DNA of 45,442 nt, taken from positions 1-45,442 of IMG/VR virus record IMGVR_UViG_2534681703_000014. One strand, given 5' to 3'. Positions 11,680-23,467 of the stretch are shown here, in pieces. The notes under the pieces are model-generated. The model did no database searches. It was not told where the DNA came from and worked only from the letters and a program-made list of their open reading frames with translations. The stretch comes from a virus. Lineage: Duplodnaviria > Heunggongvirae > Uroviricota > Caudoviricetes. The position numbers were made by a program, and so were the translations under genes. Every line of letters starts with the position of its first letter. Within the stretch, counting starts at the first letter, position 1.

Positions 11680-12366
11680 ATGACCACAATAAATACGTTT
11701 ATGACAGTTGCTGATTTCAAACGGCCTAAATTGGAGCTCCCAAACGGGGCAAACAAACTACTACTGCACTCTTGCTGTGCTCCATGTTCCGGTGAAGTGA
11801 TGGAGGCGCTTCAGGCCTCGGGAATCGACTACACCATCTTTTTCTACAACCCGAACATTCATCCTCAGAAAGAGTATTTAATTCGTAAGGATGAGAATAT
11901 TCGCTTTGCTGAACAACACGGCGTGCAGTTTATCGATGCTGATTACGACACAGACAACTGGTTTGAACGTGCCAAAGGAATGGAATGGGAGCCCGAGAGG
12001 GGGATCCGTTGTACCATGTGTTTTGACATGCGTTTTGAGCGGACAGCGTTGTACGCTGCTGAAAATGGTTTCAGTGTGATCAGCAGTTCGCTGGGCATTT
12101 CACGCTGGAAAAATATGCAGCAGGTTAACGACTGTGGGCGGCGAGCCGTCGCGCATTATCCGGGAATGGTGTACTGGGATTATAACTGGCGCAAGCAGGG
12201 CGGCTCGTCCCGTATGATTGAAATCAGCAAGCGCGAAAAATTCTATCAGCAGGAATATTGTGGCTGTGTGTATTCTCTGCGCGATACCAATCTACACCGC
12301 AAATCTCAGGGACGCCCTCTTATCAAAATTGGTCAACTCCACTACGGTAAAGAAGAGAAGGAGTGA
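11680..12366 (+). CDS. queH: Epoxyqueuosine reductase QueH family (DUF208)
   Basis: N-terminal [11 protein letters not shown] and later CGCVYS motifs match the QueH/DUF208 Cys signature as I recall it; 228 aa. Confidence 0.7.
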
Positions 12367-14255: not shown

Positions 14256-14633
14256 ATGACTGAACGCATAGAATTTGTTTTGCCTTACCCGCCAACGGTG
14301 AACACTTACTGGCGACGTCGTGGCAGCACATATTTTGTATCAAAAGCCGGTGAGCGTTATCGCCGTGATGTGGCGCTTATTGTTCGCCAGCAGCGGCTGA
14401 AATTAAACCTGTCCGGAAGGCTGGCGATAAAGGTGATTGCAGAGCCACCGGATAAGCGCCGCCGCGACCTGGACAATATCCTGAAGGCACCACTGGATGC
14501 GCTGACGCATGCCGGACTACTTATAGACGACGAGCAGTTTGATGAAATCAATATTGTGCGCGGTCAGCTCGTTCCTGGTGGGCGGCTGGGCGTGAAGATT
14601 TGCGAAATCAGAGGCGATGGTAATGGGGCGTGA
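14256..14633 (+). CDS. rusA: Holliday junction resolvase RusA
   Basis: RRRDLDN motif and overall similarity to E. coli RusA by recollection; 125 aa. Confidence 0.8.
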   Translation: MTERIEFVLPYPPTVNTYWRRRGSTYFVSKAGERYRRDVALIVRQQRLKLNLSGRLAIKVIAEPPDKRRRDLDNILKAPLDALTHAGLLIDDEQFDEINIVRGQLVPGGRLGVKICEIRGDGNGA

Positions 14634-14973
14634 TATGTATGAGGTTTTAGATCGCTGGGGGGCATGGGCTGCAGCAGAAAATAGCGGTGTCGATTGGCAA
14701 CCGATAGCAGCGGGCTTCAAGGGGCTTTTGCCACATGGCAAAAAGTCACGTCTCCAGTGTGATGATGATGAAGGCATCATGATAGACGGTTGTGTGGCTC
14801 GGTTGCGAAAGTATAAACCAGAGGAATATGAGCTGCTCATAGCTCACTTTGTTATTGGTGTTTCTCTACGCTCAATCGCGAAGAAACGCAGGTGCTCAGA
14901 TGGAACTATAAGAAAGGAGCTGCAAACTGCATTAGGCTTTATTGATGGATGTATATGCTTGATTCTATCATAA
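14617..14973 (+). CDS. Late-gene antiterminator Q (phage 82/QuuD-like)
   Basis: VLDRWGAW...IAAGFKGL...SRLQCDDD...CSDGTIRKELQ closely resembles the QuuD-type Q sequence I recall; overlaps the rusA 3' end. Confidence 0.75.
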   Translation: MVMGRDMYEVLDRWGAWAAAENSGVDWQPIAAGFKGLLPHGKKSRLQCDDDEGIMIDGCVARLRKYKPEEYELLIAHFVIGVSLRSIAKKRRCSDGTIRKELQTALGFIDGCICLILS

Positions 14974-15373: not shown

Positions 15374-15619
15374 TCACCTTCCTGCACTTGCTTCGTTGCG
15401 AGTTTTGAGTTCGCGTAGCAGTAGCGCCAACTCTTCTGCGTCATTTTCGTTTCTAACGCTGACTTTCCTTTTAGCGGTTCTGCCTTCAGGATCGGTGTAG
15501 GTTAGTTCAATATACGCATTCGGCTTTACCCAAACCAAGAACCTAAGCACAGCATATCTGACCGTCGCTGCGACAGCCATGAATACAGTGATGTAAAGCA
15601 TAATGCTTAGGATTGACAT
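15374..15619 (-). CDS. Unknown small membrane protein (81 aa, N-terminal TM); second gene of cassette
   Basis: N-terminal hydrophobic ILSIMLYITVFMAVAATV; 3-nt gap to upstream gene stop. Confidence 0.5.
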   Translation of the reverse strand: MSILSIMLYITVFMAVAATVRYAVLRFLVWVKPNAYIELTYTDPEGRTAKRKVSVRNENDAEELALLLRELKTRNEASAGR

Positions 15620-15622
15620 GAT

Positions 15623-16534
15623 TTAAAGTAGTTTCCTATCTGCCGCCGCTCTGTGGCGTATAACCTTAGTAATACTATAGCGTGGTTTAGACAGCGCGCC
15701 ATTTGTTTCTTTTGTTGTTTCTGTCAGTTCTACAACAAAAAGATCACCCTTACAGAATGCTGCTTGGTTGTGTTCAACCCGTTCAAGAAAAGCCTCATCT
15801 TTCATAGATGCACTAACTTCTTCGCCATTTGGCAGGATGATATCCCAGCTTTTGCCTTGCTTGAATCGAACATTAGCAAAATGTACATTAGCTTGGCGTG
15901 TCGTTACGTGCGTTTTCTCGACAAAGGTGGATTTTGCAGTTTTAAAACTTACTGCTTCAGCTTGCGTCACCCTGACTACCTTATGCTTCTGCTGTGAAAC
16001 TGAGAACGTGGATGGTTTTTCAGTCTGCAGGGGTTTATAGATTAATTTATCCAGTTCTTTTCGGATGATTGGACTGGTTATTAATTTTTGAATGTCGTTA
16101 CTGCATTTAACCTTCTCACCATCCACTTCGATTTCTGCTGTATCTTTTTGTTCATCGACGACAATGGAGCTGATTTTACGCCCTTTGAGCCATTCGATTA
16201 TCCCGAGTACGCCACCTGCGGCAACTCCACCACCTGCAACGAGGCCAAGGGCGTTAATAGTTTTTATGCTCCCCATCACAGCAACAAGCAAAGTAAATGA
16301 ACCTTCTTTTGTTGCCTTGATGTTGACTTTCGGCTCTGCTGTTTCGCCATTAATTATTTTTTCGGCGTGTTCAATCAGGGCACTAAGAGAGGTTAAGGCT
16401 TCGCCTAATGTTTTCGCGTCGATCTGATTATCTGCGTATGCCTCTCCACCGTAGGCAATTTCGATTTCTGTTATTGGCATGTTTTCGAGTTGCTGCGTCA
16501 TCAAAAGCATCCTTTGCGCAAGAGAAATAGCCAC
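15623..16534 (-). CDS. Unknown 303-aa protein with central Gly-rich hydrophobic segment and Lys-rich C-terminal domain; first gene of cassette
   Basis: Long ORF; hydrophobic FTLLVAVMGSIKTINALGLVAGGGVAAGGVLGIIEWL near residues 80-115; start uncertain (GTG 16534, ATG 16510 or 16480); no family recognised. Confidence 0.55.
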   Translation of the reverse strand: MAISLAQRMLLMTQQLENMPITEIEIAYGGEAYADNQIDAKTLGEALTSLSALIEHAEKIINGETAEPKVNIKATKEGSFTLLVAVMGSIKTINALGLVAGGGVAAGGVLGIIEWLKGRKISSIVVDEQKDTAEIEVDGEKVKCSNDIQKLITSPIIRKELDKLIYKPLQTEKPSTFSVSQQKHKVVRVTQAEAVSFKTAKSTFVEKTHVTTRQANVHFANVRFKQGKSWDIILPNGEEVSASMKDEAFLERVEHNQAAFCKGDLFVVELTETTKETNGALSKPRYSITKVIRHRAAADRKLL

Positions 16535-16766: not shown

Positions 16767-16842
16767 GGCCCTTTAGCTCAGTGGTGAGAGCGAGCGACTC
16801 ATAATCGCCAGGTCGCTGGTTCAAATCCAGCAAGGGCCACCA
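16767..16842 (+). tRNA. tRNA with CAU anticodon, resembling E. coli tRNA-Ile2 (ileX-like); Met cannot be excluded
   Basis: Manual cloverleaf: acceptor GGCCCTT/AAGGGCC, D-arm GCTC..GAGC, anticodon loop CTCATAA, T-arm GCTGG-TTCAAAT-CCAGC, 3' ACCA. Confidence 0.85.
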
Positions 16843-16843
16843 A

Positions 16844-16920
16844 CCGCCACTAGCTCATCAGGAAAGAGCGTCAACCCTTTAAGTTGAGTGTGCGAGGTTC
16901 GAGTCCCCGGTGGCGGTCCA
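16844..16920 (+). tRNA. Atypical tRNA-like gene, apparent anticodon UUU (Lys) with C33 and U73
   Basis: Acceptor CCGCCAC/GTGGCGG, D-arm GCTC..GAGC, anticodon stem TCAAC/GTTGA with loop CCTTTAA, T-loop TTCGAGT with one stem mismatch, 3' TCCA. Confidence 0.5.
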
Positions 16921-16922
16921 GT

Positions 16923-16998
<76 letters not shown>

Positions 16999-17001
16999 TA
17001 T

Positions 17002-17076
<75 letters not shown>

Positions 17077-17441
17077 GCATTTGCAACAAGCCTTATTGTA
17101 TTGCGGCACTGGTGTATTTTTTATTACGTGGGAGCAGGTTGTTTTGAAAAAGCATTCTGTTCTCTGGCTATAATTTGAGGCCAGGTGTAGCCTCAGTGCT
17201 GATTTTTTTACGACAGCAGAATGGTGCATTATCGGTGGAGATTTTGTATTTCCTGGCAGGGTCGGTGATGCATCATTCTGGTGTTGTAAATCGCACCAAA
17301 GAGGCGCACCTAAGTGCGAGTGTGGTTTAAAGAGTCGGTTTAGCTGGAAATCACAGTATCCATACAGCACGGAATACTTCGGGAGGCGCCAGACGCCTCG
17401 GTTTAATAACAATTAAAAAATTCATCCCTTGCATTGACCAA

Positions 17442-17465
17442 CCGCCATATCTGGCGGTTTTTTTA
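17442..17465 (+). terminator. Rho-independent terminator in the tRNA-lysis spacer
   Basis: Hairpin CCGCCA-TATC-TGGCGG followed by TTTTTTT. Confidence 0.5.
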
Positions 17466-17832
17466 TTCCTTTCTCATGACGAAAAAAGACACGAGCATCC
17501 AGGAATACTCGTGGGACAACGTCCTTTGGATAGCAATTTGCGAGAGGGTGAAAAGTAGCGCGGTCGTCGGATTAAGACCGCGGGACAAAGTCCATGAAGA
17601 ATAATAAGTATTGGTCCCCTTCCGGGGACATGTTCATACTACTAAGATTCAGAAGTGGTTTAAATCCTCAAATTAACATTAATTTCCGATAAGTCTTATT
17701 TCATTTCTTTGCGCCACATCTGGCGCGCATCAAATAACGCCACGCAAAGGGCATCTGCGGATGCCGGTGCTTTTGACGGGGTGTTTTTTACGGGCCGCTG
17801 GTGGCCCTTTTTTATTTACAGGAGAAAAAAGT

Positions 17833-18225
17833 ATGTCTGAACCCTTATCCGGTTCCGGCACGGCTGCGGCGCTCGGCGGGGCGACGGTGTACGGGCTGTT
17901 TACCGGGACGGATTTCGGGATTGTGTTTGGTGCGTTCGCCGGTGCGTTATTTGTGGCAACGATGCCGCAGGCGCTTTCAGCCTGGCGTGTGGCGGCGCAT
18001 TTTCTGGTGTCGTTCATTATCGGCGTGCTGGGGGCAGAGGTTCTGGCGTCCTGGCTGGTAAAGCATACAGGGTTTGACGGTGCACCTGTCGACGCACTGT
18101 GTGCAGTGCTGGTGTCAGTGGTGTCGGTGAAGATTCTGTCGTTCATCCACCAGCAGGATATTGCATCACTGGTGTCCGGTGTGTTCTCCCGCCTGCGGGG
18201 CGGAGGAGGCGGCAATGTTAAGTAA
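17833..18225 (+). CDS. Putative holin (131 aa, multiple TM segments)
   Basis: ATG 17833 with AGGAGA SD; hydrophobic Gly/Ala-rich TM segments; first gene of the lysis cassette ahead of the endolysin. Confidence 0.55.
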   Translation: MSEPLSGSGTAAALGGATVYGLFTGTDFGIVFGAFAGALFVATMPQALSAWRVAAHFLVSFIIGVLGAEVLASWLVKHTGFDGAPVDALCAVLVSVVSVKILSFIHQQDIASLVSGVFSRLRGGGGGNVK

Positions 18226-18493
18226 CCTTCCCGGATTGCTGAATGTGGCGTTATGCACGGTTATCGTGCTGACGCTCTTTTTTTATCGTCGTCGTGACTC
18301 CAGACACAAACCGCTGATGTCATGGCTGGCCTGGCTGCTGATGCTGCTGTATGCCTTTGCGCCCCTCAGCTATCTGTGCGGTCGCCCGTTAGCGGCGAAC
18401 TGGCTGGCGGTGGGGCTTAATCTGCTGTTCTGCGTGTTGGTGATTCGCGCACGCGGGAACGTTTCAAAAATCTTTGTATTACGAAGGCGCTGA
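18215..18493 (+). CDS. Second lysis-cassette membrane protein (holin/antiholin-like, 92 aa)
   Basis: ATG 18215 with GGAGGAGG SD; about 3 TM segments; overlaps the previous gene 3' end and abuts the endolysin start. Confidence 0.45.
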   Translation: MLSNLPGLLNVALCTVIVLTLFFYRRRDSRHKPLMSWLAWLLMLLYAFAPLSYLCGRPLAANWLAVGLNLLFCVLVIRARGNVSKIFVLRRR

Positions 18494-18494
18494 T

Positions 18495-19040
18495 ATGAAG
18501 TCGAAAGATGAAATTTTTGACGAAGTTCTGGGAAAAGAGGGCGGTTATGTCAATCACCAGGATGATAAAGGCGGACCGACAAAATGGGGTATTACTGAAA
18601 AAGTTGCCCGTGCGCACGGATACCAGGGCGATATGCGTGATCTGACGCGCGGACAGGCGCTGGAAATACTCGAGGCGGACTACTGGTATGGACCACGTTT
18701 TGACCAGGTGGCAGCGTTATCCCCTGATATTGCCGCAGAGTTGTGTGATACGGGCGTCAACATGGGGCCAGCCGTGGCGTCAAAAATGCTTCAACGCTGG
18801 CTGAACGTTTTCAACCTGCGCGGGAAACTGTATCCGGATATGGATGCAGACGGACGTATCGGGCCGCGTACTCTTAATGCATTACGGGTATATCTGAAAA
18901 ATCGTGGCAGGGATGGAGAGCTGGTAATGCTGACCGCACTGAACTGTACGCAGGGTGACCGCTATCTGGAGCTGGCAGAGAAACGGGAGGCTAACGAGTC
19001 GTTTGTTTACGGCTGGATGAAAGAGCGCGTAGCAGTTTAA
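18495..19040 (+). CDS. Endolysin, glycoside hydrolase family 108-like with C-terminal peptidoglycan-binding region
   Basis: N-terminal EVLGKEGGYVNHQDDKGGPTKWGIT matches the GH108 signature as I recall it; 181 aa. Confidence 0.7.
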   Translation: MKSKDEIFDEVLGKEGGYVNHQDDKGGPTKWGITEKVARAHGYQGDMRDLTRGQALEILEADYWYGPRFDQVAALSPDIAAELCDTGVNMGPAVASKMLQRWLNVFNLRGKLYPDMDADGRIGPRTLNALRVYLKNRGRDGELVMLTALNCTQGDRYLELAEKREANESFVYGWMKERVAV

Positions 19041-19140
19041 AAACTGACACTGAAGTGCTGAACACCCTCAACTCATGCAGGCTCTTTTTTGGGGTTACGA
19101 TGAGCGAAGATAAGGGGGGGGCAGCATCAGATAGCAAAAA

Positions 19141-19169
19141 CCCCGGCTGCTGGAACAGTCCGGGGTTTT
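19141..19169 (+). terminator. Candidate terminator after endolysin
   Basis: Hairpin CCCCGG...CCGGGG followed by TTTT. Confidence 0.4.
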
Positions 19170-19541
19170 CTGTTTCTGACCCTGGGTAAGGCAAAGGAGA
19201 ACATGAGGAAGTATAAACTAATTCTGTTGAGGTTGACTATGAAAAACGGCCTTGAATTGAAAGCGCCCGTAACTGATGACATCAGCAGAGCGGTGGCTTT
19301 TGCCATTAAGTGGGTGGCTGTCGGTATCACTGTGTCTCCGATGCTGTATGGGATGGCAAAATTGATCATTGCTGTGAAATCGTAAGTGGGGCAGGGGTAA
19401 ATATGTCAGATAGCATTATAAAACTGGCGCGAATTCTCTGTGTGGTTGTTGGCCTTTCATTTTCAGCAATGTTGGTTGCCATTTTCATTTCCACCACCTG
19501 GCGAGTATTGAGCTTATCCGGATTGATTGGTGGATAGTGAG

Positions 19542-19724
19542 ATGAAGCGAAAACACTGGACACACAGAATGCCGCGAACGGCGGCGAAATGGGCACTGGT
19601 AGCGATACTGGTGCCTTTTTTATTGGTGGGATGCGTCAGCCTGGATAAGGCGCGCCAGCTTTTCGATACAGCTTCTCAGGTCTGCAAAATTGTCGACGGT
19701 GTCCGGCATTGTATGCAGAACTGA
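19542..19724 (+). CDS. Small putative lipoprotein (60 aa)
   Basis: Signal-peptide-like N-terminus ending in lipobox LLVGC; downstream of the lysis genes (possible spanin-like or exclusion lipoprotein, unassigned). Confidence 0.35.
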   Translation: MKRKHWTHRMPRTAAKWALVAILVPFLLVGCVSLDKARQLFDTASQVCKIVDGVRHCMQN

Positions 19725-19895
19725 TCGCCTGTAAGAGCAGAATATTTTGCTGAAAAATGAAGGATGCGTCAGCGTCCGGAAAGCATGAAATTCTGTGTTT
19801 GTGGCTACTCAATAAAATAAATTCTTTCTTTCGCCGCGAATACTCAAATGTTGATCAGTGCCCGGTGCGGCGACGGGCTTCGATATCAGGAGACG

Positions 19896-20246
19896 ATGAT
19901 GGAAACAACAGAAAACAAACCGATTGTAATTGGTGCCGCTACTGTCCCGTTTAAGTTTGAGTTGTCTCAACTGGTGGAGATGCGCATCAGTGATGAATGG
20001 GGTGAGGTTAAAGCTCGCGCGCAGTATGCGGATGGCGAAAACCAGTACTTGATCCACTACAAGGCTGCTGATGGTCGCGCCACAACGGCGTGGTTTGGTG
20101 AGTCAATGCTGGGAGCAACAGAAGATGATCGCCATCCGGGCTGTCCGGTATTTGCCGGTATGAAATTACCGGAAGGTGCAGTTGAACTGCAGCCGGGTGC
20201 GGTGTTCGTAATGACAGACATCATTGATGGTAAACCGCAGTATTAG
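19896..20246 (+). CDS. Hypothetical protein (116 aa)
   Basis: ATG 19896 with AGGAGA SD; no family recognised. Confidence 0.5.
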   Translation: MMETTENKPIVIGAATVPFKFELSQLVEMRISDEWGEVKARAQYADGENQYLIHYKAADGRATTAWFGESMLGATEDDRHPGCPVFAGMKLPEGAVELQPGAVFVMTDIIDGKPQY

Positions 20247-20873
20247 CGTATTGAAATGAATAGTAAGAGTGCTCGCCTGATTCGTGAGTAACAGGCATTA
20301 CAGCAGCCCTTCACTCTAAGGGGTTGCTGTAATGTGAGAAATAAAAAACCGGTCACAGGGAGCAGCTACACAGAAGCGGCCGGCGAAGACCGCCAATACC
20401 ACCCATGCATTGATGTAACATACTAATGACAATAGCCGCTATTGATGTAAATGCAATGTTATGCATCGACGAAAATAAAAAACCGGCAGGGGAAATCCAT
20501 TGAAGATTTGCCGGTGGCAAAAGAGGGCCATGTTTTTAACCTTAGTCGCAGAGTTACGGAGTGCAACTACGAATGCTGCCGGTATATGGCTGAATGGCGT
20601 TTCAATGATGTACGTCATCTTATCTGTAAATGTTAATGACAAACGCTCTCATTTGTGCGGGTCCTTCCGGTGGGGTGGCCTGCCACGGGGCGGGAGCGGC
20701 GCGGAAAAAGGCTAGTTTTTGCATTTTTATCGGCCACCATCATCTTTTCATCTTATTGATTATTAATGGTTATTTGTTTTTTGTATGTCTAATTGAGCGG
20801 TTTTTGTTCGACATCGAACGCGTTTTCTTAAAGTTGTTCGCACGATGCATGTTTAAAGCTCTCCGGAGGAAAT

Positions 20874-21365
20874 ATGGATCATGAGTTGAAAAACCTGGTG
20901 CTGAATATTAATCAACTGGCGGCTTTATCTGGTCTGCACCGCCAGACTGTCGTGGCAAGACTGAAAAACATTCGTCCCGCTGGTGGACATGACAAACTCA
21001 AGCTATACCGGTTGACCGATATTCTGACTGAATTTATGGGGTTACCACCGCCGGTTGCTGAGGGCGAAATGGATCCATATGAACGCAAAGCCTGGTATCA
21101 GTCTGAACGTGAGCGTCTTAAGTTCGAACAGGAAACGGCACAACTCATTCCGGCCAGTGATGTCAGACGGGAGTTTGCCATCTGGGCAAAAGCGGTCGTG
21201 CAGGTGCTGGAGACATTACCGGATATTCTTGAACGTGACTGCGGTCTGCAGCCTGCCGCTGTGAGCCGTGTTCAGTCCATTATTGATGATCTGCGCGATC
21301 AGATAGCCCTGCGGGTGACTGAAGCAGGTGCGGATGATGAGGAGGAATTACAGCAGGAGGAGTAA
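20874..21365 (+). CDS. Terminase small subunit (Nu1-like)
   Basis: N-terminal HTH-like NINQLAALSGLHRQTVVARLKN; GGAGG SD; directly upstream of and overlapping (TAATG) the large terminase. Confidence 0.65.
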   Translation: MDHELKNLVLNINQLAALSGLHRQTVVARLKNIRPAGGHDKLKLYRLTDILTEFMGLPPPVAEGEMDPYERKAWYQSERERLKFEQETAQLIPASDVRREFAIWAKAVVQVLETLPDILERDCGLQPAAVSRVQSIIDDLRDQIALRVTEAGADDEEELQQEE

Positions 21366-23467
21366 TGCTGAATCAGGAAACCGCAAAGGCAGCACGAACC
21401 GATTCAGGTTATATCCTTCGCGCACCGAGACGAATGCGGGTTGCTGATGCCGTTGCTCAGTATATGCGGGTGCCCATGGGGGCCGGGAACTCAGTCCCGT
21501 GGGATCCGCTGGTGGCACCGTATGTTATTGAGCCGATGAACTGCCTGGCCTCGCGTGAATACGACGCAGTGATATTTGTTGGCCCGGCACGAACCGGCAA
21601 GACTATCGGCCTGATTGACGGCTGGGTGATTTACAACGTGATTTGCGATCCTGCTGATATGCTGATCATTCAGATGACGGAGGAAAAAGCCCGCGAACAC
21701 TCCAAAAAACGACTCGCCAGAACGTTTCGCGTCAGCCCGGAAGTGGTCAGTCGCCTGAGTCCGAACAAAAATGACAACAACGTTTATGACAGAACATTCC
21801 TTGCTGGCAACTACCTGAAAATCGGCTGGCCGTCAGTCAATATCATGTCCTCATCAGATTATAAATGTGTGGCGCTGACGGATTATGACCGTTTTCCGGA
21901 AGATATTGATGGTGAGGGGGATGCCTTCTCTCTTGCTTCAAAACGTACCACCACATTTATGTCCAGTGGTATGACGTTGGTGGAGAGTTCCCCCGGCAGG
22001 GATGTGAAGGATGTGAAATGGCGACGGACTTCACCGCATGAGGCTCCACCAACCACGGGGATCCTGTCGCTCTATAACCGTGGTGATCGCCGTCGCTGGT
22101 ACTGGCCCTGCCCACACTGTGGTGAGTATTTTCAGCCCTGTGGCGATGTGGTTGCTGGTTTTCGTGATATTGCCGATCCCGTGCTGGCAAGTGAGGCAGC
22201 TTATATTCAGTGCCCTTCCTGTTCCGGGCGAATTATGCCTGACCAGAAACGCGAGCTGAACGGACGTGGGGTCTGGTTGCGGGATGGTGAATCCATCAAT
22301 GCAGACGACAGTCGTTATGGTGAGCCCCGGCGCTCACGTATTGCGTCATTCTGGATGGAAGGCCCCGCTGCGGCATATCAGACGCTGTCCCAGCTGGTCT
22401 ATAAGTTGCTGACCGCCGAACAGGAATACGAGTCGACCGGAAGCGAAGAAACGCTCAAGACAGTCATCAACACCGACTGGGGATTACCTTATCTTCCCCG
22501 GGCCAGCATGGAGCAACGAAAAAGCGAACTGCTTGAGCAGCGGGCAGAGCCTGTTCCTCCCCGAAGTGTGCCGGATGGCGTTAATTTCCTTGTGGCGACA
22601 GTGGATGTGCAGGCGGGACGTCATCGCCGTTTTGTGGTTCAGGTAACGGGCTATGGCAGTCGTGGCGAACGCTGGATAGTTGATCGTTACAACATCACGC
22701 AGTCGCTGCGTTGTGACAATAACGGGGAAAGCCTGCGTATTGACCCTGCCGGTTATCCGGAGGACTGGGATGTTCTGCTGACGGATGTTTTTCATAAAGG
22801 CTGGCCGCTGGCTTCTGACTCCTCTCAGCGCATGCGGGTAATGGCAATGGCGGTGGACTCCGGCGGTGAAGATGGGGTTACCGATAATGCCTATAAATTC
22901 TGGCGTCGTTGTCGTCTTGATGGTCTTGGCAAGCGTATTTACCTGTTTAAGGGCGACAGTATCCGTCGCGCAAAACTGATAACCCGTACATTTCCGGATA
23001 ACACCGGACGAACGGGGCGACGGGCGCAGGCTTCGGGTGATGTTCCACTCTGGCTCCTTCAGACGGATGCCCTGAAAGACCGGGTGAATAACGCGTTATG
23101 GCGTGACTCGCCAGGTCCCGGCTATGTGCATTTTCCTGACTGGCTGGGGAGCTGGTTTTACGACGAACTGACGTATGAAGAGCGGAGCAGTGACGGAAAG
23201 TGGAGCAAGCCGGGTCGCGGTGCCAACGAAGCCTTTGACCTGATGGTGTATGCCGAGGCGCTGGTTATTCTGCATGGGTACGAGAAAATTCAGTGGCCGG
23301 ATGCGCCGGAATGGGCATGCAGGGAAACCTGGCTGGAATACGTCAGTGACAACGCTGAGCAGGCTGTTCTGCCGGAACCAGTCTCTCTGCCTGCCAGAAA
23401 AAAGAAACGAAAAAAAGTGACGCCCGATGAGGATAACCCCTGGGTGACTTCCGGAGGATGGTTATGA
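21365..23467 (+). CDS. Terminase large subunit (GpA-like, 700 aa)
   Basis: Walker A-like FVGPARTGKT near the N-terminus; size and position typical of lambda gpA. Confidence 0.85.
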   Translation: MLNQETAKAARTDSGYILRAPRRMRVADAVAQYMRVPMGAGNSVPWDPLVAPYVIEPMNCLASREYDAVIFVGPARTGKTIGLIDGWVIYNVICDPADMLIIQMTEEKAREHSKKRLARTFRVSPEVVSRLSPNKNDNNVYDRTFLAGNYLKIGWPSVNIMSSSDYKCVALTDYDRFPEDIDGEGDAFSLASKRTTTFMSSGMTLVESSPGRDVKDVKWRRTSPHEAPPTTGILSLYNRGDRRRWYWPCPHCGEYFQPCGDVVAGFRDIADPVLASEAAYIQCPSCSGRIMPDQKRELNGRGVWLRDGESINADDSRYGEPRRSRIASFWMEGPAAAYQTLSQLVYKLLTAEQEYESTGSEETLKTVINTDWGLPYLPRASMEQRKSELLEQRAEPVPPRSVPDGVNFLVATVDVQAGRHRRFVVQVTGYGSRGERWIVDRYNITQSLRCDNNGESLRIDPAGYPEDWDVLLTDVFHKGWPLASDSSQRMRVMAMAVDSGGEDGVTDNAYKFWRRCRLDGLGKRIYLFKGDSIRRAKLITRTFPDNTGRTGRRAQASGDVPLWLLQTDALKDRVNNALWRDSPGPGYVHFPDWLGSWFYDELTYEERSSDGKWSKPGRGANEAFDLMVYAEALVILHGYEKIQWPDAPEWACRETWLEYVSDNAEQAVLPEPVSLPARKKKRKKVTPDEDNPWVTSGGWL

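Follow-up and report, generated by a model that had tools for sequence, protein, structure and literature searches.

The stretch analyzed here (the window; 45,442 nt, IMG/VR record IMGVR_UViG_2534681703_000014) is a complete lambdoid prophage of Escherichia coli with a full prophage gene set. Its lysis cassette contains two holin-like genes and an endolysin gene, followed by a spacer and a block of small open reading frames (ORFs) that ends with ORF C, a predicted prolipoprotein gene on which this report centers. The run of eight G's, the spacer hairpin, the 44-amino-acid (aa) transmembrane (TM) ORF (B), and the 60-aa lipobox ORF (C) all lie where an initial annotation, made from the sequence alone, had placed them; a third ORF of 60 aa (A, 19203-19385) is part of the same block. 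The features of this region are as follows (dN/dS, ratio of nonsynonymous to synonymous substitution rates).

17833-18225, plus strand: holin-like protein 1 (130 aa, Phage_holin_8), first gene of the lysis cassette (PF16931, 7.7e-22; phrog_198 "holin," 1.8e-42)
18215-18493, plus strand: holin-like protein 2 (92 aa, three TM segments, Phage_holin_3_7) (PF05449, 2.9e-21; phrog_217 "holin," 2.2e-37)
18495-19040, plus strand: endolysin (181 aa), GH108 muramidase with PG_binding_3 (PF05838, 6e-26; PF09374, 4e-26)
19114-19121, no strand: G8 homopolymer, read directly, in the spacer between the endolysin stop and the terminator hairpin
19141-19179, plus strand: intrinsic-terminator-like hairpin and U-tract; stem-loop 19141-19169, then TTTTCTGTTT (-28.5 kcal/mol, z = -4.8)
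19203-19385, plus strand: ORF A, 60 aa, tail anchored; N-terminal part basic, TM segment near residues 30-58 (phrog_1115, 1.2e-40; dN/dS 0.29)
19403-19537, plus strand: ORF B, 44-aa single-pass membrane peptide (phrog_4906, 6.6e-19; dN/dS 0.21)
19542-19724, plus strand: ORF C, 60-aa predicted prolipoprotein with lipobox LLVG-C31, Val at +2, and a 30-aa mature peptide (phrog_7528, 3.7e-37; dN/dS 0.20)
19591-19626, plus strand: terminator-like hairpin in the signal peptide codons of C; stem-loop 19591-19616 with an 11-bp stem and a GCGA loop, then UUUUUAUU

RefSeq relatives carry A, B, and C as annotated coding sequences ("hypothetical protein," PGAP) and label the endolysin "glycoside hydrolase family 108 protein." Each of the three small ORFs gave a full-length profile match to a PHROG family of unknown function and no match in Pfam, NCBIfam, PADLOC, or PDB chains, and all three are under purifying selection (dN/dS 0.2-0.3). 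The cassette also occurs in isolated phage genomes such as phiP27 and phiSTEC1575-Stx2k; the nearest isolated phage is the Stx2e phage phiP27, with 94% identity over the holins and flanks.

The initial annotation had reported that no canonical Rz/Rz1 spanin pair follows the endolysin, a claim that a standard embedded pair elsewhere in the cassette would have overturned. The absence in fact extends to the whole 45-kb window. A tblastn search with the lambda/21-type Rz and embedded Rz1 of PhiR5_2 gave no match there, and a six-frame lipobox scan, which recovered Rz1 in both positive-control loci, left only ORF C credible as a lipoprotein. A scan of the window for type II membrane ORFs with a hydrophilic periplasmic tail found none in or near the lysis cassette; its matches elsewhere were a tail-protein fragment, minus-strand ORFs at 15374-16279 (a candidate defense locus), and spurious ORFs. 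We rejected the idea that another frame of the endolysin or holin genes hides an inner-membrane spanin subunit (i-spanin), as no TM-containing ORF is present in them.

The predicted C precursor has a long and basic n-region (MxRKHWTHRxPR, about +6) and an h-region reading ALVAILVPFLL, followed by the lipobox VG-C. In alignments of 22 and 14 homologues, LLVG-C31 is invariant, and position +2 holds V, A, T, S, G, or E but in no case D; a lipoprotein signal with no Lol-avoidance residue at +2 predicts sorting to the outer membrane. The mature peptides are 27 to 33 residues long and form an amphipathic helix with the motif ...L-E/D-K-A-R-x-L/W-F.... Cys48 is invariant, and in all subfamilies a second Cys (Cys57 in the window) follows 9 to 10 residues further on, near the C terminus, so that C has predicted periplasmic cysteines available for disulfide linkage. 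Mature C contains no proline, has a net charge of about +1, and ends ...CKIVDGVRHCMQN; a hydrophobic C-terminal segment is found in no member of the family. The family is small and restricted to Enterobacterales (155 clusters at 90% identity), and C remains conserved across E. coli, Yersinia, and Lelliottia. When 1.84 billion representatives were searched with a profile, only 21 clusters came back, all of them from this same small family, and thus no distant link to a known one emerged. Against the known families of Rz1 and other outer-membrane spanin subunits (o-spanins), C gave no Pfam or NCBIfam match at E <= 1-5 and no tblastn match to the Rz1 of PhiR5_2.

We surveyed the genomic context of C in 99 loci drawn from IMG/VR, GTDB genomes, RefSeq E. 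coli, and assemblies, and in a further 117 loci anchored on the hairpin inside C, which partly overlap the first set. In every surveyed locus, C lies downstream of the endolysin gene, on the same strand, as the last gene of the lysis cassette. In 45 of 96 loci, the distance between the endolysin stop and the start of C is -4 to +15 nt, with several ATGA overlaps among them; in the remaining loci the gap is occupied by A, B, or other inserts. The surroundings of C vary: it occurs with two types of endolysin (GH108 and Peptidase_M15_4), with three types of holin (either the holin_8 and holin_3_7 pair or a single holin matching Phage_holin_3_1 or phrog_126), and beside packaging modules of lambda, P27, and Mu type, in lambdoid phages and one Mu-like phage. 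Rz/Rz1 is present in none of the C-bearing loci of either set. No other lipobox ORF was found in the C loci, and among the 99 loci no conserved type II TM ORF lies within -2.5 to +1.5 kb of C; an embedded, overlapping, or adjacent gene for a cognate i-spanin is thus lacking.

C holds the position that Rz/Rz1 has in other lambdoid cassettes. In one architecture, iss/bor lies 3' of C on the opposite strand, as it does after lambda Rz/Rz1. Likewise, a module of A and B is followed in the same flanking position by either Rz/Rz1 (about 1,093 of 5,426 complete E. coli genomes) or C. The same 5,426 genomes include 354 with C and 375 with the hol8-hol37 pair, and the cassette is also found in Salmonella, Citrobacter, Cronobacter, Yersinia, and Lelliottia.

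One member of this family has been named in the literature. Kongari et al. (2018; BMC Bioinformatics 19:326; PMC6139136) assigned phiP27 a separated two-component spanin, with the o-spanin at 20706-20861 and the i-spanin at 20348-20542; the o-spanin is listed as a singleton family, a computational label, and the phiP27 spanin is the one with the shortest combined periplasmic length, 62 residues (PMC6139136). This "o-spanin" is a 51-aa form of C (the 51- and 60-aa forms are ~90% identical). The "i-spanin" (64 aa; locus L001, 3765-3959) is a TTG-start ORF with no family match that lies wholly antisense to a 90-aa gene (L001 3749-4021, minus strand; phrog_36812, 5e-20), and it is present in only 2 or 3 of more than 200 C-bearing loci, all of them phiP27-like records. 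Judging from its sequence and distribution, the phiP27 i-spanin is probably an annotation artifact, which would leave the C family with no known partner. Rz has been found in 277 of 279 Stx phages, and the phiP27-like cluster C (Stx2e) phages have been described as having a canonical metallopeptidase endolysin and a classical holin (PMC8136144).

The hairpin inside C is the top-scoring terminator-like site between 17400 and 21000 (-22 kcal/mol, z = -3.2), and 19591-19616 together with UUUUUAUU qualifies as a predicted Rho-independent terminator. This stretch encodes the signal peptide residues WALVAILVPF. Its nucleotides are invariant from E. coli to Lelliottia; the adjoining peptide, LLVGCVSLEKAR, is equally conserved and shows synonymous changes in 9 of its 12 codons. 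Across 11 comparisons, an unchanged amino acid keeps the same codon in 76 of 82 cases within the hairpin versus 136 of 215 elsewhere in C (Fisher p ~1e-7, with comparisons that are not independent). The loop variants of the closer homologues are all GNRA (GCGA, GCAA, and GUGA), and the distant copy L099 has UUGA. Covariation lends the hairpin no support, as no double compensatory changes exist; its support comes from the suppressed synonymous change and the loops that remain GNRA. We rejected a dispersed repeat as its origin, since each of its 118 exact copies in IMG/VR falls within the reading frame of C. The hairpin is missing from the sole copy of C in a Mu-like phage (L100), where the late genes adjoin a Mor-type activator gene; Mu-type late transcription depends on activators, not antitermination.

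No promoter-like site was found on the plus strand between 17400 and 21000. The window encodes a Q antiterminator at 14617-14973 (PF06530, 4e-45). The intragenic hairpin is most likely a terminator that is passed only by Q-modified RNA polymerase; in the lysogen, such a terminator would prevent expression of C and of the late genes that follow it. Two strong terminator-like hairpins also lie just 5' of the first holin gene (17440-17467 and 17792-17816) and are plausible tR'-type targets of Q antitermination.

Unlike C, the other two small ORFs are an optional module, encoding small predicted inner-membrane proteins. In PhiR5_2 the gene order is S, R, A, B, and Rz with embedded Rz1, and O157:H7 has the same order; B is directly 5' of Rz in both, and an A-B-Rz query is at least 80% covered in the 1,093 complete E. 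coli genomes counted above. A and B are both missing from about half of the C-bearing loci. Neither has the N-terminal TM anchor and periplasmic domain of tens of residues that define an i-spanin: by hydropathy, the flanks of B (about 10 and 15 residues around the TM segment) are too short, and A has a C-terminal TM segment, a basic N-terminal part, and no periplasmic domain. Neither protein could bridge the periplasm. Because the module coexists with a complete Rz/Rz1 elsewhere, A and B are not spanin substitutes, and on all of these grounds we rejected either as an i-spanin. The suggestion of the initial annotation that atypical small proteins supply the spanin function therefore survives in part: lipoprotein C is the only plausible provider of the outer-membrane step, and the TM peptide B and A are no substitutes for a spanin. 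For A and B themselves, we infer only an accessory role, possibly as modulators of lysis timing or of the membrane.

The spacer hairpin at 19141-19179 appears to belong to this module. None of 200 shuffled sequences folded as well as 19141-19169, which, as a GC-rich stem-loop directly before a U-tract, UUUUCUGUUU, is a predicted Rho-independent terminator. The same hairpin, or variants with an altered stem and the same shape, lies 5' of gene A in cassettes whose endolysin is of the GH108, M15, or lambda-type R kind (L004, L006-type, and other loci). Because the hairpin travels with A across different endolysins, the hairpin and A(-B) behave as a mobile insert at the junction of the endolysin and the gene for the outer-membrane step, and the hairpin looks like the 5' edge of this insert. 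The A-B module would then be horizontally mobile, inserting between an endolysin gene and whichever outer-membrane lysis gene follows. This junction is also an insertion site for KilA-N/antirepressor genes and other morons. An Rfam scan of 17300-21000 gave only a rimP-leader match, on the minus strand over this first hairpin (E = 0.09), which is below threshold and was treated as chance.

The junction of the endolysin and C is a hot spot for toxin morons. In Rac-SA53 (L091 3180-4955), genes of heat-labile enterotoxin II (LT-II) type directly follow the GH108 endolysin and C is not present; in a Yersinia kristensenii prophage (L093 5001-8140), LT-II-type genes lie a few genes downstream of C.

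The run of G's in the spacer had been put forward in the initial annotation as a possible slipped-strand mutation site. Its length does vary: 32 related loci have G4, and the lineage that shares the window's spacer has G8 (the window), G6 (L008), and G7 (L012), the latter two loci being the only other members of that lineage. All matched complete RefSeq genomes carry a 160-nt form of the spacer with G4, and the G6, G7, and G8 variants come from draft assemblies, in which homopolymer errors are possible. These differences among relatives indicate that the tract is either unstable in length or error prone in draft assemblies. The ORF that covers it (19055-19189) has no family match, and no promoter-like site lies there. 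A phase-variable (contingency) locus has its tract in a coding region or a promoter spacer; this one lies in an untranslated spacer, is noncoding, and is apparently functionless. The variation in length thus stands, and we see no sign of a phase-variation function.

Together, these comparisons of genomic context lead us to favor, at about an even chance, a reading in which C is a partner-less outer-membrane lysis lipoprotein at the 3' end of a phiP27-type cassette, within a late operon antiterminated by Q. The argument for C as the protein of the outer-membrane step draws on its fixed terminal position, its coupling to the endolysin, its independence of holin, endolysin, and virion type, its replacement of Rz/Rz1, and the lack of a promoter-like site. 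Because there is no inner-membrane subunit, C falls outside the definition of a two-component spanin, and because it has no C-terminal TM segment, it also falls outside that of a unimolecular spanin, which combines a lipoprotein signal and a C-terminal TM domain in one polypeptide. As a member of neither class, C would work like a spanin replacement.

Under this reading, C would be a late product that leaves the cytoplasm through Sec, acquires its lipid at Cys31, and is delivered by Lol to the outer membrane, in whose inner leaflet the intact cell wall would restrain it. Once the holin and endolysin had removed the wall, the 30-residue amphipathic, disulfide-bonded peptide would disrupt the outer membrane without a dedicated inner-membrane subunit from the phage; disulfide-linked oligomers are possible. 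More tentatively, C could represent a new, third class of phage proteins for outer-membrane lysis, that of lytic mini-lipoproteins without a partner. We include in this possibility a version in which C is a one-gene spanin: its long, basic, and conserved signal peptide would leave a fraction of the protein unprocessed and anchored in the inner membrane, and lipidated C in the outer membrane would pair with the unprocessed form through the amphipathic helix and disulfides at Cys48 and Cys57. The paired forms would link and then disrupt both membranes once the wall was gone. This tentative reading also has the terminator in the signal peptide codons allow expression of C strictly under Q antitermination.

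Several points weigh against a partner-less lysis lipoprotein. At 30 residues, or about 4.5 nm if helical, the mature peptide is too short to span the periplasm by itself. Its amphipathic moment of 0.57 is only moderately unusual, being reached by 124 of 5,000 shuffles, and the peptide is not cationic (+1). An AlphaFold2 model built on a 22-sequence alignment is a single helix of low confidence (predicted local distance difference test score [pLDDT] 68, predicted template modeling score [pTM] 0.31). C might travel with the cassette through physical linkage alone, and it may have a partner that is encoded by the host or has gone unrecognized. Rac-SA53 has a cassette of this type without C, and such cases could mean either that C is not essential or that these prophages are defective. 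Finally, literature searches on the C lipoprotein, on partner-less o-spanins, and on phiP27 lysis turned up no experimental work.

The main rival to this reading is that C is not a lysis protein at all and instead serves lysogenic conversion or exclusion, as a receptor blocker like Cor/Llp or a surface factor like Bor/Iss; the initial annotation had also raised an exclusion-type lipoprotein. C is indeed a small prophage lipoprotein of the outer membrane amid morons, with Stx2e, LT-II, iss, KilA-N, and A-B nearby. Such phages would have to manage without an outer-membrane lysis protein, which is made easier to accept by the cassette of Rac-SA53, which lacks C, and by lambda Rz/Rz1 mutants, which still lyse without added divalent cations. 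A conversion gene is nevertheless hard to reconcile with the coupling of C to the endolysin gene, or its overlap with it, in many lineages. With no promoter-like site on its strand and a terminator-like hairpin inside the gene, C is unlikely to be expressed in the lysogen. It follows the lysis cassette across lambda-like, P27-like, and Mu-like modules rather than any particular tail module, it never shares a cassette with Rz/Rz1, and its lack of Pfam, NCBIfam, and PADLOC matches places it in neither a Bor-type family nor a defense model. We therefore disfavor this explanation and consider it unlikely.

C might also be an ordinary o-spanin of a separated two-component system whose partner has escaped recognition, with B, A, the phiP27 64-aa ORF, one of the holin-like proteins, or a host protein as candidates. 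This is how Kongari et al. classed phiP27 (PMC6139136), and B lies only 4 nt upstream of C, which itself has the periplasmic cysteines typical of spanin subunits. Each candidate from the phage meets an objection, however: the phiP27 "i-spanin" is antisense to the phrog_36812 gene, belongs to no family, and is present in 2 or 3 of more than 200 loci; A and B are missing in roughly half the loci, coexist with Rz/Rz1, and have no periplasmic domain; and holin types vary among C loci. No conserved type II TM ORF lies between -2.5 and +1.5 kb of C in the 99 loci. Overall, we regard such a partner as quite improbable. That the locus is evolutionary debris, with Rz/Rz1 lost, the small ORFs mere remnants or chance ORFs, and the G-run a mark of decay, would fit the purely hypothetical annotation of the three ORFs and their lack of a Pfam or NCBIfam family. 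It is very improbable given their dN/dS of 0.2-0.3, a PHROG family for each, the retention of C, its lipobox and Cys pair unchanged, in E. coli, Yersinia, and Lelliottia, the occurrence of the cassette in the isolated phages phiP27 and phiSTEC1575-Stx2k, and the complete gene set of the window prophage.

The proposed partner-less lysis lipoprotein can be compared with several known systems. The closest relative is the phiP27 "o-spanin," which belongs to the same family and has a lipobox LVGC, a 30-aa and mostly helical mature peptide, and the same place after the endolysin; that assignment is computational and comes with a 64-aa i-spanin, which to us looks like an antisense artifact and is missing from nearly all other C loci. 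Like lambda Rz/Rz1, C is cassette terminal, 3' of the endolysin and 5' of bor/iss, and supplies an outer-membrane lipoprotein with periplasmic cysteines, and either system can be preceded by the same A-B module, inserted after the endolysin. Unlike that pair, C has no inner-membrane subunit or embedded gene pair, and its periplasmic length is far below what spanning would require. Lambda Rz1 has 10 Pro in 40 residues, whereas mature C has none, and C belongs to no Pfam family, that of Rz1 included. The unimolecular spanin gp11 of T1 likewise comes from a single gene with an N-terminal lipoprotein signal and provides the outer-membrane lysis step, but it has a C-terminal TM anchor and a long β-rich periplasmic domain, in contrast to the hydrophilic Cys-loop end and 30 mature residues of C.

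Other small envelope-active proteins offer partial parallels. In phiKT, a spanin-less phage, the "disruptin" gp28, a cationic amphipathic peptide of antimicrobial type, replaces spanins (bioRxiv 10.1101/515445). It resembles C in being small, single component, and amphipathic and is a precedent for disruption of the outer membrane by a nonspanin; C, a predicted Sec- and Lol-routed lipoprotein with a net charge of about +1, is not a disruptin in this cationic sense. The colicin lysis proteins (bacteriocin release proteins [BRPs], Lysis_col) and entericidin B come close to C in design, each pairing a 45- to 60-aa precursor with a lipidated, envelope-permeabilizing peptide of about 27 to 30 aa. 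The stable signal peptide of BRP contributes to lethality, a parallel to the unusually conserved signal peptide of C. These proteins differ from C in having no Cys pair and in not being genes of phage lysis cassettes, and C itself matched neither the Lysis_col nor the entericidin profile. A distant C member reached E = 0.07 against Lysis_col (13 bits versus a cutoff of 27), over the signal and lipobox only, and was rejected as evidence of membership by sequence. For A and B, the nearest precedent is Lcc6 of LambdaSo, a 65-aa single-TM protein encoded in or near the lysis cassette and needed besides the holin, endolysin, and spanin (bioRxiv 10.1101/2024.01.23.576932). Lcc6 is, like A and B, a small single-TM phage protein and a precedent for modulation of the holin step, with no sequence relationship claimed; unlike Lcc6, A and B are dispensable in many cassettes.

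Some 13-15% of phages of Gram-negative hosts have no recognizable spanin, and the disruptin is the sole alternative in the literature that we found. If a 30-residue lipopeptide alone carried out the outer-membrane step, this would amount to a novel lysis mechanism, and a very small one. The entry for the shortest spanin in the reference survey, where the phiP27 i-spanin appears to be an artifact, would also need correcting. The cassette is common (about 350 of 5,426 complete E. coli genomes) and adjoins genes of the Stx2e, Stx2k, and LT-II toxins, which are released via phage lysis. A second lead is the A-B module, which about one in five E. coli genomes carries within a lysis cassette.

The remainder of the window contributes the following landmarks and neighbors.

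Left end of the window: integrase-sized ORF
21365-23467: terminase gpA of lambda type, with tail genes to the right

Downstream of C, a conserved 116-aa ORF (19896-20246; phrog_1935, 1e-67) follows in many, not all, loci and lacks both a TM segment and a signal peptide. A cluster of four tRNA genes (Met-CAT, Lys-TTT, Thr-TGT, and Gly-TCC; 16767-17076) immediately precedes the lysis cassette; in relatives, Stx2e genes take the place of this cluster, and LT-II genes are found on the other side of the lysis cassette, just past its downstream end. The minus strand between the Q gene and the tRNA genes encodes a 217-aa protein with an N-terminal TM segment (15623-16276) that matches the PADLOC candidate defense model PDC-S42 at 1e-37, adjoined by an 81-aa TM protein (15374-15619). 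The prophage also carries a homologue of QueH, an epoxyqueuosine reductase, at 11680-12366 (PF02677, 2e-65).

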